Shown in pieces: positions 42,001-54,000 of a stretch of DNA of 64,000 nucleotides. The stretch lies in sequence record NZ_KX832927.1; one strand, 5' to 3'. Made by a program: the position numbers. The DNA comes from a plasmid. The first letter of the stretch is position 1, and the number at the start of each line of letters is the position of its first letter.

Positions 42001-45000
42001 ATCACCGAACTGCTGCTCGAAGTCGATGAGTGGACGGGCTTCACCCGGCACTTCACGCACTTGAAATCGGGCGATCTGGCCAAGGACAAGAACCTGTTGT
42101 TGACCACGATCCTGGCCGACGCGATCAACCTGGGCCTGACCAAGATGGCCGAGTCCTGCCCCGGCACGACCTACGCGAAGCTCGCTTGGCTGCAAGCCTG
42201 GCATACCCGCGACGAAACGTACTCGACAGCGTTGGCTGAACTGGTCAACGCTCAGTTTCGGCATCCCTTTGCCGGGCACTGGGGCGATGGCACCACATCA
42301 TCATCGGACGGACAGAATTTCCGAACCGCTAGCAAGGCAAAGAGCACGGGGCACATCAACCCAAAATATGGCAGCAGCCCAGGACGGACTTTCTACACCC
42401 ACATCTCCGACCAATACGCGCCATTCCACACCAAGGTGGTCAATGTCGGCCTGCGCGACTCAACCTACGTGCTCGACGGCCTGCTGTACCACGAATCCGA
42501 CCTGCGGATCGAGGAGCACTACACCGACACGGCGGGCTTCACCGATCACGTCTTCGCCCTGATGCACCTCTTGGGCTTCCGCTTCGCGCCGCGCATCCGC
42601 GACCTGGGCGACACCAAGCTCTACATCCCGAAGGGCGATGCCGCCTATGACGCGCTCAAGCCGATGATCGGCGGCACGCTCAACATCAAGCACGTCCGCG
42701 CCCATTGGGACGAAATCCTGCGGCTGGCCACCTCGATCAAGCAGGGCACGGTGACGGCCTCGCTGATGCTCAGGAAACTCGGCAGCTACCCGCGCCAGAA
42801 CGGCTTGGCCGTCGCGCTGCGCGAGTTGGGCCGCATCGAGCGCACGCTGTTCATCCTCGACTGGCTGCAAAGCGTCGAGCTACGCCGCCGCGTGCATGCC
42901 GGGCTGAACAAGGGCGAGGCGCGCAATGCGCTGGCCCGTGCCGTGTTCTTCAACCGCCTTGGTGAAATCCGTGACCGCAGTTTCGAGCAGCAGCGCTACC
43001 GGGCCAGCGGCCTCAACCTGGTGACGGCGGCCATCGTGCTGTGGAACACGGTCTACCTGGAGCGTGCGGCGCATGCGTTGCGCGGCAATGGTCATGCCGT
43101 CGATGACTCGCTATTGCAGTACCTGTCGCCACTCGGCTGGGAGCACATCAACCTGACCGGTGATTACCTATGGCGCAGCAGCGCCAAGATCGGCGCGGGG
43201 AAGTTCAGGCCGCTACGGCCTCTGCAACCGGCTTAGCGTGCTTTATTTTCCGTTTTCTGAGACGACCCCAATAGGCGTCGTTCAGCGCAAAGATCGGCTT
43301 GCGGGTGCGCCACTGCCCTCGGGTGAAGTCGGGAAAATCTAACGTGCGATTGCCCTCAGCAATCGATTGTTCCGACAGAGGCGTGATCGCGCTCCAGGCC
43401 AGCGCGTCGTAAATGTCGATTGGCATCGGGGCCTTGGCCTTCAGCGCCTCGACAAAAGCGTGGATCACGAACCAGTCCATCCCGCCATGCTCGGCCCCTG
43501 CCGCCAGATCGGCGTAGCGTTTCCATAGCGGGTGATCGTATTTCGCAAACCAGCCCTCGGCAGGCTCCCAGCGGTGCGGCTGTGGGCTCTTGCCCTCCAG
43601 ATAGATCGACTTGTTGACGTCCATCCACAGCCCCTCGGTGCCTTGCACCCGAAAGCCGAGAGAATAGGGGCGCGGCAGCGAGGTGTCGTGGCACAGCATG
43701 ATCGTTTCACCATTAGTGCAGCCGATCATGGTGTTGACCACATCACCCAGTGCGAATTTCACCTCGGCGTTGGGATGATCGGCAGAGCCGTTCTTGACGA
43801 CATAATCATGCAGCCCGCGCGCCTTACAGCCGAAGCCGCCAGCGCCCGCTTCGCCCGGCAACGCGACCTTCAGGGTGCGGGTCTGCGGCGGGTAGCACAC
43901 GCCGGCATCGGCGCAGCCCTGGTACTTCACGGTCAGGGTGGTCGCGCTCGCGCCGGCCGCGGGCGTGCCGGTGAGGGTGCCGAGCAATTCCTTGCGGTAG
44001 GTTTCGACGTCGCCGAAGAATTCGTCGCGGTAGGCCTTGCCCTTCGGCAGCGCCATGGTCGCGCCGGTGAAGGCGGCATCGGCCTTGACCGAGGTGCGGT
44101 GCCGGTACAGGTAATAGCCGTCGGCGATCCGCCAGCGCACCTCGATGCGGTCCGGCGCGGTGGCCTGCGCGGACAGGACGAAGACCTCGTCGACCGGCGG
44201 CAGTTCGAAGTCCTGGGCGACGGCCGAGGTCGCGGGCAGCGCAAGCAGCAGGGCGAGCCCGGCCAGCCAGCGGCGCAGGCGGATCGTGGATGCGGTCATT
44301 GGCTCAGTTTACCGGTCGGCTCTCGGCGGCCAGCCATTGCAGGTATTCGGGCAGGCCGGACGCGGCTTCGACCGCGAGCAGCTCCGGGAGTTCGTAGGGA
44401 TGCAGTTGGCGCAGGCGTTCCTGCAGGGCGGGGTAGGCCTCGGCACTGGTCTTGACCAGCAGCAGGACCTCGGCCGCGGCCTCGACCTTGCGTTGCCAGC
44501 GATAGACCGAACGCAGGCCGGGCAGGAGGTTGACGCAGGCGGCCAGGCGCTCGGCCACCAGCGCGGTGGCGATGCGCTCGGCGCTGTCGGCGTCGGGACA
44601 GGTGCAGAAGCAGATCAGGGCGCTCACCGGCATAGGGTAGCGGCTGCCCCGATCCGGCGGGCCTGGCGGACATCCGCGTGCGGCCCTTGAAAGTCGGCGG
44701 GCCCGCCCCATCTCGGTGGCATGCCGGGTTCGCCCGGTTCTGTTGTCCGCGGTTTGGCACTCGCTTCGCGCGACTGCTAAAATCGCCGGGTTTTTCCACG
44801 TCAATCAACCATTTACCGAGGTTGCCATGTCCAATATCAAGCCGCTGCACGACCGCGTGGTCATCAAGCGCATGGAAGAAGAGAAGCTGTCCGCCGGCGG
44901 GATCGTGATCCCGGATTCGGCCACCGAGAAGCCGATCAAGGGCGAAGTCGTCGCCGTCGGCACCGGCAAGGTGCTGGACAACGGCCAGGTCCGCGCGCCG

Positions 45001-51000: not shown

Positions 51001-54000
51001 GCCCCGGCCACACCAGTGACAATATCACCGTTGGGATCGACGGCACCGACATCGCTTTTGGTGGCTGCCTGATCAAGGACAGCAAGGCCAAGTCGCTCGG
51101 CAATCTCGGTGATGCCGACACTGAGCACTACGCCGCGTCAGCGCGCGCGTTTGGTGCGGCGTTCCCCAAGGCCAGCATGATCGTGATGAGCCATTCCGCC
51201 CCCGATAGCCGCGCCGCAATCACTCATACGGCCCGCATGGCCGACAAGCTGCGCTGAGCCATGGCTGACCACGTCACCCCCAATCTGCCATCGCGCGATT
51301 TCGATGTGACAGAGGCGTTTTATGCGAAGCTGGGCTTTGCGACGAGTTGGAAGGATCGCGGCTGGATGATCCTGCAGCGCGGCGGTTTGCAGCTCGAATT
51401 CTTCCCCTATCCTGACCTCGACCCAGCTACGAGCTCGTTCGGCTGTTGCCTGCGGTTGGATGATCTCGATGCCATGGTGGCATTGGTGAACGCGGCGGGA
51501 GCCGAGGAAAAAAGCACCGGCTGGCCGCGCTTCAAAGCTCCGCAACTGGAGGCGAGCGGCCTGAGGATCGGCTACCTGATCGATCCCGACTGCACGCTGG
51601 TGCGGCTGATCCAGAACCCCGACTGACCGCATGCCCGCGAAAATCAAGATTTGCGGGATCAGCACACCCGAGGCGCTCGATGCGACCATCGCGGCGCGGG
51701 CGGACTATGCCGGGTTGGTGTTCTATCCAGCGTCGCCCCGTGCGGTTACGTCGAATGTCGCGGGCGCTTTGACATCGCGCGCAGCTGGCCAGATCGCCAT
51801 GGTCGGTTTGTTCGTCGATGCGGATGATGCTGTCATCGCCGACGCACTGGTGGCAGCCAAGCTGAACGCGCTGCAGCTGCACGGTTCGGAATCGCCCGAA
51901 CGCGTGGCCCAGTTGCGCGCGCGGTTTGGCAAGCCGGTGTGGAAGGCGCTGCCCGTCGCCAGCGCCAGCGATGTCGCACGCGCCGCAGCCTATGCCGGGG
52001 CGGCGGACTTGATCTTGTTCGACGCCAAGACCCCCAAAGGCGCGCTGCCCGGCGGCATGGGGTTGGCGTTCGACTGGTCGCTGCTGGCCGGATATCGCGG
52101 TGCCTTGCCGTGGGGGCTGGCAGGCGGGCTAAATCCGACGAATGTTGCCGAGGCGATTGCGCGCACCGGAGCGCCGCTGGTCGATACCTCCAGCGGCGTC
52201 GAAAGCGCGCCGGGCGTCAAGGATACCGACAAGATTACCAATTTCGCCTTTGCGGTGCGCTTGGCCTAAATCGCGTCGATCAATAGGGGGGCACCTCAGA
52301 AAACGGAAAATAAAGCACGCTAAGGCATAGCTGACCTTGCCAGGCCTGCTTCGCCCTGTAGTGACGCGATCAACGGGCAGGAAACATTCCCCTTTCGTGC
52401 ATGGCAGGCGCACACGAGTTCAGACAGCACGGTTTCCATGCGCGCCAAGTCGGCCATCTTCTCGCGCACGTCCTTGAGCTTGTGTTCGGCCAGGCTGCTG
52501 GCCTCCTCGCAGTGGGTGCCATCGTCGAGCCGCAACAGCTCGGCAATCTCGTCCAGACTGAACCCCAGCCGCTGTGCCGATTTCACGAATTTCACCCGAA
52601 CCACGTCCGCCTCCCCATAGCGGCGGATGCTGCCGTAAGGCTTGTCCGGTTCCCGCAACAGGCCCTTGCGCTGATAGAAGCGGATTGTCTCCACGTTGAC
52701 CCCGGCCGCCTTGGCAAAAACGCCAATGGTCAGGTTTTCCAAATTATTTTCCATATCGCTTGACTCCGTACATGAGTACGGAAGTAAGGTTACGCTATCC
52801 AATCCAAATTCAAAAGGGCCAACGTATGTCTGAACCACAAAACGGGCGCGGTGCGCTCTTCGCCGGCGGGCTGGCCGCCATTCTTGCATCGACCTGCTGC
52901 CTGGGGCCGCTAGTACTGGTCGCCCTGGGCTTCTCCGGTGCTTGGATCGGCAACCTGACGGTGCTGGAACCCTATCGACCGTTGTTCATCGGCGCGGCGC
53001 TAGTGGCGCTGTTCTTCGCCTGGAAGCGGATTTACCGGCCCGTGCAGGCATGCAAGCCAGGTGAGGTCTGCGCGATTCCGCAGGTGCGCGCCACCTACAA
53101 GCTGATTTTCTGGATCGTGGCCGTGCTGGTCCTGGTCGCGCTTGGATTTCCCTATGTCGTTCCATTTTTCTATTAACCAGGAGTTCATCATGAAGAAACT
53201 GTTTGCCTCCCTTGCCCTCGCCGCCGCTGTTGCCCCGGTGTGGGCCGCTACCCAGACCGTCACGCTAGCGGTTCCCGGCATGACTTGCGCCGCCTGCCCG
53301 ATCACAGTCAAGAAAGCGCTCTCCAAGGTCGAAGGCGTGAGCAAGGTCGATGTGGGCTTCGAGAAGCGCGAGGCCGTCGTCACTTTTGACGACACCAAGG
53401 CCAGCGTACAGAAGCTGACCAAGGCCACCGCAGACGCCGGCTATCCGTCCAGCGTCAAGCAGTGAGCCAGCAAGCCAACGACAACAGCGAGAGCCGCTTC
53501 ATGGGACTGATGACACGCATTGCCGATAAAACCGGCGCGCTCGGCAGCGTCGTTTCCGCGATGGGCTGCGCCGCCTGCTTTCCAGCCCTCGCCAGCTTCG
53601 GCGCGGCCATCGGGCTGGGCTTCTTGAGCCAGTACGAGGGACTGTTCATCAGCCGCCTGCTGCCGCTGTTTGCCGCGCTGGCCTTCCTGGCGAACGCGCT
53701 GGGTTGGTTCAGTCATCGGCAATGGCTGCGCAGTCTGCTCGGCATGATCGGCCCGGCCATCGTGTTTGCGGCCACGGTCTGGCTGCTCGGCAACTGGTGG
53801 ACGGCGAACCTGATGTACGTCGGCCTGGCCTTGATGATTGGGGTGTCGATCTGGGACTTCGTGTCGCCGGCGCATCGCCGTTGCGGACCGGACGGCTGCG
53901 AACTCCCCGCCAAGCGCTTGTGAAAGACGGCTGACCGTGCGACACGGCGGCCCACACGAATAAGGAACGATGGTATGAGCACTCTCAAAATCACCGGCAT

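Follow-up and report, generated by a model that had tools for sequence, protein, structure and literature searches.

The blaNDM-1 segment of NZ_KX832927.1 is a circular permutation of Tn125 with a single ISAba125, held between the ends of a permuted Tn21

The closest described system is p16Pre36-NDM (KX832927) of Providencia rettgeri from Bogota, reported by Marquez-Ortiz et al. 2017 (PMC5554438) and re-described by Dong et al. 2019 (PMC6737455). By its published description, MDR region-2 carries one ISAba125 and the order tat-dct-groES-groEL-ISCR-delta-pac upstream of blaNDM-1, with the Tn125 remnant lying between two Tn21 inverted repeats (IRs) and IS26 at both ends. The mer operon is set apart from the rest of Tn21, which is present as four segments, and the region also includes Tn6346 with IS5075, a dfrA1-aadA1 integron, an IS26-aphA1a unit and a GIsul2 fragment with ISCR2-glmM-sul2. 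All of these features are found in the 64,000 nucleotides of NZ_KX832927.1 analyzed here (the window). The coordinates agree as well: with a window start near pPrY2001 coordinate 32,256, the ISCR2 repeat that begins at 67,813 in PMC5554438 would begin at about window position 35,557. The arrangement is already published and PCR-verified for the P. rettgeri plasmid, and the mechanistic reading alone is new. Both papers resort to the terms 'odd rearrangements' and 'complex recombination events', and neither mentions an AATAG duplication, the exact circle length or a single-copy permuted Tn21.

Canonical Tn125 (pAbNDM-1 / pNDM-BJ01) has the same gene content and the same hybrid promoter and differs by 1 SNP in 9 kb, but it contains two ISAba125 copies, whereas the locus studied here has one, in a permuted order and with Tn21 ends at the trpF/tat boundary. 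The NDM segment spans window positions 43270-52286 (9,017 bp), corresponding to the 9,012-bp content of a one-ISAba125 Tn125 plus 5 bp. Its features are as follows.

43270-43274: AATAG, left copy of the 5-bp target-site duplication
43205-44299, minus strand: tat/dsbD-like ORF, 364 aa versus 343, stop codon destroyed by the Tn21 insertion
44304-44633, minus strand: cutA
44827-45117, plus strand: groES
45173-46813, plus strand: groEL
47038-48531, plus strand: ISCR27 transposase gene (ISCR clade Ia model, 1158 bits; annotation)
48532-49264: AT-rich remnant from ISCR27 to ISAba125 (delta-pac in the literature), in unbroken identity to Tn125
49265-50351, plus strand: ISAba125 (IS30 family; 1,087 bp), sole copy, linking the ISCR27 side to the blaNDM side
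50341-50369, plus strand: hybrid blaNDM promoter, read directly
50445-51257, plus strand: blaNDM-1
51261-51626, plus strand: bleMBL
51631-52269, plus strand: trpF
52282-52286: AATAG, right copy of the 5-bp target-site duplication

The original prediction had described this segment as a circular permutation of Tn125 with a single ISAba125, and a BLAST comparison with the canonical Tn125 of pAbNDM-1, together with the exact length, bears this out. The reference aligns in two blocks, one running from tat to the right ISAba125 (window 43269-50353) and the other from the left ISAba125 to trpF (window 49265-52287), and the overlap of the two is the one ISAba125 copy. Sequence identity is 99.99% over 9,012 bp, the single SNP (position 43491) causing one G-to-E substitution in the tat/dsbD-like ORF. 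The internal gene set blaNDM-1-ble-trpF-tat-cutA-groES-groEL-ISCR27 is complete, its proteins were confirmed, and the predicted gene order and strands agree with NCBIfam and the annotation of matching records, from which the gene identities were taken. An inversion in the Tn125 gene order was considered and rejected, the annotated references showing that the window order is the canonical one. The AT-rich remnant (GC content 0.445) is placed as it is before the right-hand ISAba125 of Tn125. ISAba125 itself, predicted at 49274-50356, was rightly called a single copy in the 64 kb, although its limits were off by 9 and 5 bp; the refined length is supported by a 1,087-bp match to a third IS copy and by the overlap of the BLAST blocks.

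The opening was correctly placed between trpF and tat, and its exact site is AATAG, 13 bp past the trpF stop and overlapping the tat-like stop codon, so that this ORF runs 21 extra codons into Tn21. At this point canonical Tn125 reads CGATC-AATAG-GCGTC, with AATAG in single copy. A window that merely started inside a canonical Tn125 can be excluded, both ends of the unit lying within it; PMC5554438 likewise gives one ISAba125 copy for p16Pre36-NDM. The two directly oriented outer ISAba125 copies of the composite are absent from the 64 kb, where the only copy is internal to the unit, and so is the 3-bp target duplication at the outer IS ends, the flanks being Tn21 IRs and a 5-bp repeat. Because the segment is exactly one circle-length of Tn125 less one ISAba125 (9,012 + 5 bp), the two Tn125 ends are joined through that single copy. 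Without ISAba125 outer ends for composite transposition the unit has lost movement as Tn125, and blaNDM-1 retains its ISAba125 hybrid promoter, which is intact as predicted, with the -35 TTGAAT at 50341-50346 (within the IS end), the -10 TACAGT at 50364-50369, a 17-bp spacer and the blaNDM ATG at 50445.

Two 38-bp Tn21 terminal repeats, IRtnp (43232-43269) and IRmer (52287-52324), abut the NDM unit facing outward, are identical to the ends of R100 Tn21, and each adjoins a direct repeat AATAG, so that the 5-bp Tn21 target-site duplication is present on both sides. These boundaries (IRtnp, IRmer and the AATAG duplication) had not figured in the original prediction. Tn21 and related sequences are distributed over the window as follows.

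18696-26956, plus strand: Tn21 positions 6077-14337, with truncated tniA, tniB, IS1353, IS1326, 3'-CS and aadA1 (99.98% to R100)
27039-33981, plus strand: module of a Tn21 relative followed by an IS110-family IS (NCBIfam; 92% to Tn21 14318-19709)
27039-27512, minus strand: dfrA1 (NCBIfam)
27672-28685, plus strand: intI1 (NCBIfam)
tnpA at 29932-32898, plus strand: with tnpM/res/tnpR, genes of the Tn21 relative
32977-33981: IS110-family IS, approximately at the end position of the Tn21 relative
40111-43269, plus strand: Tn21 left arm, with the tnpR 3' remnant, tnpA and IRtnp (99.97% to R100 Tn21 16569-19730)
52287-58200, plus strand: Tn21 right arm, with IRmer, merRTPCADE, urf2, In2 IRt and 5' tniA

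The names Tn6346 and IS5075, and the placement of an IS inside the transposon end repeat, come from Dong 2019 on p16Pre36-NDM (PMC6737455). The tnpA of the left arm is intact (40270-43236; 988 aa; Tn3-family transposase model, 1329 bits), and the right arm equals Tn21 positions 59-5972 at 100% identity to R100 Tn21. The pieces 59-5972, 6077-14337 and 16569-19730 share one orientation and none is duplicated; Tn21 DNA in the window thus sums to one copy, circularly permuted at the IS26 in tniA. The contiguous order IRmer-mer-In2-tnpM-res-tnpR-tnpA-IRtnp is absent, the pieces being permuted and interrupted by IS26, aphA1, the Tn6346-like module and the GIsul2 fragment, and the tnpR beside tnpA is truncated. 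Positions 5973-6076 are missing, and positions ~16100-16568 are replaced by the Tn6346-like module, the GIsul2 fragment and an inverted IS26. The junction of IS26 with tniA at Tn21 position 6077 recurs widely (for example, in pSN254).

The whole block is bounded by IS26.

17876-18695, plus strand: IS26 copy 1, left block boundary (14-bp IRs; identical to copies 2 and 3)
39291-40110, minus strand: IS26 copy 2, inverted, truncating Tn21 tnpR at Tn21 position 16569
58201-59141, minus strand: aph(3')-Ia fragment of Tn4352 (gene at 58239-59054; NCBIfam)
59142-59961, plus strand: IS26 copy 3, right block boundary

Copies 1 and 3 do not differ in sequence, have the same orientation and lie 41,266 bp apart, and an IncC backbone fragment (toxin-antitoxin/parM region) lies directly beyond copy 3. 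The tniA / aphA1 joint is irregular, and its junction is unique in PLSDB. None of the eight IS26 flanks shows an 8-bp target duplication, direct or inverted, which is expected for targeted conservative IS26 insertion and equally after unrelated rearrangements. Match extensions of 11 bp and ~20 bp at IS26, considered as inverted duplications or a shared pTAFA flank, proved on direct reading to be chance, low-identity matches. pTAFA matches window 1-18699 and carries IS26 at the same backbone site as copy 1, which is compatible with conservative insertion beside a pre-existing IS26, but its right flank differs; it does not qualify as an empty site, sharing the backbone and IS26 at the left end only. 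The 41,266-bp block sits at the fusion point of pPrY2001-like and IncC sequences and may therefore have been left over from a larger island instead of having inserted as a translocatable unit.

These features are probably best explained by an insertion of Tn21 into a Tn125 unit closed through one ISAba125, followed by opening at IS26. A Tn21-type (Tn3-family) mercury/integron transposon would have inserted at AATAG, at the trpF/tat boundary of the Tn125 unit. Either before or after this insertion, a single ISAba125 would have come to link the outer ends of that unit; the simplest means is recombination of its two direct ISAba125 repeats, yielding a one-IS circle or else a tandem array. The product would be a closed repeat unit of ~41.3 kb, consisting of the one-IS Tn125 (9,012 bp) and a 32.2-kb Tn21 derivative. 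This unit would then have been opened at the IS26 within Tn21 tniA, away from the Tn125/Tn21 joints, behaving as an IS26 translocatable unit or as an IS26-excised tandem-array period beside a resident IS26, and now lies in a pPrY2001-like/IncC hybrid plasmid. Directly observed are the Tn21 IRs with their AATAG duplication, a segment length exactly that of the circle, Tn21 DNA in one copy and IS26 at both boundaries; from these we infer the order of events and a circle or tandem-array intermediate. ISAba125 composites are known to yield one-IS circles, as detected by outward PCR on TnaphA6 (PMC4776018), and the account is further supported by tandem one-IS Tn125 arrays in pPROV081-1 (same plasmid family) and p6409 (IncC, Colombia), by a 9,012-bp circular record (NZ_CP123915.1), by the IS26 at the matching backbone site of pTAFA and by the second, IS26-bounded permutation of the unit described below. 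Searches of PLSDB and of contigs from GTDB genomes and JGI metagenomes gave neither Tn21/Tn125 junction (Tn21-tat or trpF-Tn21), and hence no intermediate or sibling. The reconstruction is blurred by extra events, as in the replacement of Tn21 ~16100-16568; the loss of 5973-6076 and the irregular tniA/aphA1 joint also count against it.

The same structure could have arisen, though we consider this unlikely, if replicative transposition of Tn21 from a plasmid had hit a free, non-replicating 9,012-bp one-ISAba125 circle, giving an unresolved Tn21-circle-Tn21 cointegrate whose outer halves were deleted between IS26 elements lying at matching positions in its two Tn21s. As seen here, a cointegrate formed with a circle would leave duplicated target sequence on either side of a segment exactly one circle long, the left Tn21 arm lacks res and tnpR and hence is not resolvable now, one-IS circles of ISAba125 composites are documented, and a 9,012-bp circular record exists (NZ_CP123915.1). 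However, zero Tn21 sequence is duplicated, and of an unresolved Tn3-family cointegrate with two direct Tn21 copies only the target-duplication geometry fits. Tn21 cointegrates are, moreover, usually resolved fast by TnpR, as in the Tn3 family, and a transient non-replicating circle is a far rarer target than a plasmid-borne Tn125. Routes in which insertion came first give the same structure equally: Tn21 insertion into plasmid-borne Tn125 with ISAba125 recombination and IS26 capture is topologically indistinguishable from insertion into a free circle. Of the predicted captured ISAba125 circle, the joining of the ends through one ISAba125 and the role as target of another element thus hold, while a free 9-kb circle is not shown by the data.

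The original authors suggested IS26 (PMC5554438), and shuffling of Tn21 and Tn125 by IS26 intramolecular replicative transposition or inversion alone might be expected where four IS26-family copies, one of them inverted, lie in the region. This is very improbable, and contradicted for the Tn125 part: the Tn125 breakpoints are intact Tn21 IRs with the 5-bp duplication and a complete ISAba125 rather than IS26 ends, no IS26 remnants occur at 43269/43270 or 52286/52287, inverted 8-bp IS26 footprints are absent, and the single orientation of all Tn21 segments fits permutation, not inversion. The alternative origin offered in the original prediction, a circular unit made by ISCR27 rolling-circle transposition, has an intact ISCR27 transposase gene within the unit in its favor but is not supported and extremely unlikely, since the closing joint, which also bounds the repeat unit, is a complete ISAba125 flanked on either side as it is in Tn125, the period is exactly the ISAba125-to-ISAba125 distance and not an oriIS-defined product, no novel joint lies beside the ISCR27 end, and oriIS-mapped ends with variable readthrough are found neither here nor in the tandem arrays. 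A repeat-driven assembly artefact, conceivable in so repeat-rich a region, has a negligible chance, as mis-assembly does not produce the exact transposition footprints seen at the junctions (an IR with a 5-bp duplication), and for p16Pre36-NDM checks were made by PacBio read mapping, by PCR and against a MiSeq contig obtained independently (PMC5554438).

The proposed insertion of Tn21 into a one-ISAba125 Tn125 unit and its later opening at IS26 reveal no new kind of element or mechanism; the explanation combines Tn21 transposition, recombination between ISAba125 copies and capture by IS26, all three of them ordinary steps. With its base-level footprints it would account for a blaNDM-1 context first described as an odd rearrangement not reported before.

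IS26 translocatable units and pseudo-compound transposons (Harmer, Moran and Hall 2014, as cited in PMC8894482) similarly have identical direct IS26 copies at both boundaries, and the circular form of the block would restore a continuous Tn21 with an internal IS26; in contrast to them, the block, whose mobility is putative, has no 8-bp duplication. The tandem arrays of pPROV081-1 and p6409-202kb and the 9,012-bp circular record NZ_CP123915.1, which is not discussed in the paper on its strain, share the ISCR27 side-ISAba125-blaNDM joint and the 9,012-bp period, but unlike the present locus they are uninterrupted at trpF/tat and without Tn21 ends. Circular intermediates are brought up alongside Tn125 in two papers, and the circles meant there are those of ISCR1 and of an ICE, not of Tn125. 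A second, independent permutation of the 9,012-bp unit occurs between direct IS26 copies in pNDM1_045001 and ~20 other plasmids, so that plasmids have fixed the one-IS Tn125 period on at least two occasions, at different opening points. This helps in the classification of blaNDM contexts, where segments of this type commonly go under the name truncated Tn125. The two permutations might, as a tentative suggestion that we rate well below even, be fossil evidence of a 9,012-bp one-ISAba125 circle acting as a recurrent blaNDM-1 vehicle, captured by Tn21 (5 bp) and by IS26 (8 bp); if true, blaNDM-1 would have had a route out of Acinetobacter with no need for ISAba125 transposition. Like the present segment, those of the pNDM1_045001 type (IncFII/other plasmids) consist of exactly one period and have duplicated target sequence on either side; they differ in being opened directly by IS26 (8-bp TAAAAACG) 327 bp upstream of ISAba125, in delta-pac, rather than by Tn21 (5-bp AATAG).

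The ORFs identified between 43.2 and 52.3 kb are arranged in the order tat/dsbD-like (-), cutA (-), groES, groEL, an ISCR clade-Ia transposase, an IS30-family transposase, NDM, Ble-MBL and TrpF. A megablast search of this NDM unit (43270-52286) against PLSDB found it with 100% coverage in hundreds of NDM plasmids, in most cases split into two pieces of permuted order. The canonical Tn125 of pAbNDM-1 aligns as two blocks, from tat to the right ISAba125 (window 43269-50353) and from the left ISAba125 to trpF (49265-52287), which have one 1,087-bp ISAba125 in common (49265-50351). 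The gene order and the overlap of both blocks on one IS bear out the original prediction of a permuted Tn125 with a single ISAba125, although the ends of that element had been placed a few bases off. The hybrid promoter is intact, as had also been proposed, with TTGAAT (50341-50346) and TACAGT (50364-50369) separated by a 17-bp spacer. Compared with four reference copies, the unit has a single private SNP, at 43491.

A repeat scan showed that a 38-bp inverted pair, which is IRtnp and IRmer of Tn21, directly adjoins the NDM unit. Alignment to the Tn21 of R100, the reference for Tn21 positions, placed the unit among the following features, from left to right:

17876-18695 (+), IS26 copy 1
18696-26956, third Tn21 stretch, Tn21 6077-14337 in the same orientation, directly after IS26
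after this stretch, dfrA1 and intI1
next, tnpR-tnpA of a Tn21 relative (92% identical), then an IS110-family element
next, sul2 and ISCR2
39291-40110 (-), IS26 copy 2, inverted, cutting Tn21 tnpR at position 16569
40108-43269, Tn21 16569-19730 (99.97% identity): tnpR 3' end, intact 988-aa tnpA and IRtnp (43232-43269)
52287-58200, Tn21 59-5972 (100% identity): IRmer (52287-52324), mer operon, urf2 and tniA start
after Tn21 position 5972, an aph(3')-Ia fragment, then IS26 copy 3 (59142-59961, +)

Both repeats face outward, so the Tn21 DNA extends away from the NDM unit on either side. The sequence AATAG lies immediately inside each repeat (43270-43274 and 52282-52286) and occurs once at the opening site in canonical Tn125, CGATC-AATAG-GCGTC. 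The 9,017 bp between the repeats equal Tn125 minus one ISAba125 (9,012 bp) plus a 5-bp duplication, of the kind typical of Tn3-family transposition. The stop codon of the tat-like ORF overlaps the insertion site, and the reading frame now continues for 21 codons into Tn21. Neither Tn21/Tn125 junction, represented by the 32-mers TCTGAGACGACCCCAATAGGCGTCGTTCAGCG and GCGTCGATCAATAGGGGGGCACCTCAGAAAAC, was found in PLSDB, GTDB genomes or JGI metagenomes.

The Tn21 content is single-copy, no part being present twice: pieces 6077->19730 and 59->5972 are complementary, and their meeting point is the IS26 in tniA. IS26 copies 1, 2 and 3 do not differ in sequence; copies 1 and 3 have the same orientation and lie 41,266 bp from each other. 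Read as a circle, the block that these two bound would consist of a 32.2-kb Tn21 derivative, which retains its outer IRs and tnpA intact and has inserted, with duplication of AATAG, into a 9,012-bp one-IS Tn125 circle. Read in this way, the plasmid holds a Tn125+Tn21 circle opened at IS26. On its left, the block borders pPrY2001-like backbone, which shares 100% identity with pTAFA up to and including an IS26 at the same site. On its right lies an IncC backbone fragment (toxin-antitoxin/parM); the block therefore sits at a plasmid fusion point. There is no 8-bp duplication around the block (17876-59961). The joint between tniA (5972) and aph(3')-Ia (58192-58201) has no IS26 end and shows an overlap of ~9 bp between the BLAST matches; a second instance of this junction was not found in PLSDB. 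The lack of an IS26 end, the overlap and the missing Tn21 5973-6076 suggest a deletion by illegitimate recombination.

Further features were observed to the right of the block. A fourth IS26-family copy (61183-62002) differs from IS26 at 99 of 820 positions (~88% identical; ~92% by BLAST over the first 720 bp, with a variant right end). A 62-bp unit is perfectly duplicated in tandem at 62095-62218, directly upstream of the aac(6')-Ian ORF (62190-62807) and overlapping its start; the duplication might affect expression or the start codon of this ORF. At the window's end, 63587-64000 is a 71%-complementary match to ISCR2 (36997-37410), which suggests another ISCR-type element continuing past the edge.

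Three events are needed in any scenario. Tn21 transposed into trpF/tat, as the IRs and the duplication show; the ends of Tn125 were joined via one ISAba125, as the structure shows; and an IS26-associated opening or capture, evident from the boundaries, took place by a presumptive route. The simplest route for end joining would be recombination between two direct ISAba125 copies, yielding a circle or, if between sister molecules, a tandem array. Each form has independent support: one-IS circles of TnaphA6, another ISAba125 composite, were demonstrated by outward PCR (PMC4776018), and tandem Tn125 arrays were found in pPROV081-1 (same plasmid family) and p6409-202kb (IncC, Colombia). The tandem dimer of pPROV081-1 lies in the backbone at a point matching window ~10337-10339, which is uninterrupted and thus represents the empty site for that insertion.

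The favoured route is insertion of Tn21 into a plasmid-borne Tn125, followed by circularisation or amplification and IS26 excision. Transposition of Tn21 into a free Tn125 circle, followed by IS26 trimming, predicts the identical map; the order starting from a plasmid-borne Tn125 is preferred, however, since Tn21 would encounter a replicating target far more readily and its cointegrates usually undergo resolution. Of the predicted circular form captured as a target, the circular permutation and the target role hold, whereas the free circle is unproven. An ISCR27 rolling-circle product, the other origin proposed, and IS26-only shuffling do not fit the breakpoints, and the ISCR27 origin is rejected.

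Another exact one-period permutation of the 9,012-bp one-ISAba125 unit is present in pNDM1_045001 (NZ_CP043383.1), where 4223-14196 corresponds to window 48937-52287 plus 43269-48944. It is opened in the delta-pac remnant, the AT-rich stretch between ISCR27 and ISAba125, 327 bp upstream of ISAba125, and has IS26 ends in direct orientation on both sides, the 8-bp repeat being TAAAAACG (9,020 bp = 9,012 + 8). Its left breakpoint is common to ~20 PLSDB plasmids from several genera, and no statement of this permutation was found in the literature searched. This permutation is independent support for a recurrent intermediate in the form of a closed one-IS Tn125 period. A circular 'plasmid' deposit from A. 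bereziniae UCO-553 (NZ_CP123915.1), whose project also contains a pNDM-BJ01-like plasmid, is exactly the 9,012-bp one-IS Tn125 circle. It is not discussed in the paper on that strain, and may represent either a genuine extrachromosomal circle or a by-product of assembly.

The arrangement in the window, which has a pPrY2001-like backbone, matches the already published and experimentally verified description of the Providencia rettgeri plasmid p16Pre36-NDM. Marquez-Ortiz et al. (PMC5554438) described the mer operon apart from the remaining Tn21, IS26 at both ends, and tat-...-ISCR-delta-pac upstream of blaNDM-1, termed 'not previously reported'; they verified the structure by PacBio mapping, a MiSeq contig and PCR, and suggested IS26 reorganisation as its cause. 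Dong 2019 (PMC6737455) listed four Tn21 segments, Tn6346 with IS5075, In369 (dfrA1-aadA1), a GIsul2 fragment and IS26-aphA1a, and ascribed their order to 'complex recombination events'; the names Tn6346 for the Tn21 relative and IS5075 for the IS110-family element, and the placement of this IS within the end repeat of the transposon, are taken from that work. Neither paper mentions the target duplication or the circular form, and no other reinterpretation of p16Pre36-NDM was found in the literature searched. All elements listed by Dong 2019 are present in the window at consistent coordinates, and the addition of the present analysis is a footprint-based mechanism.
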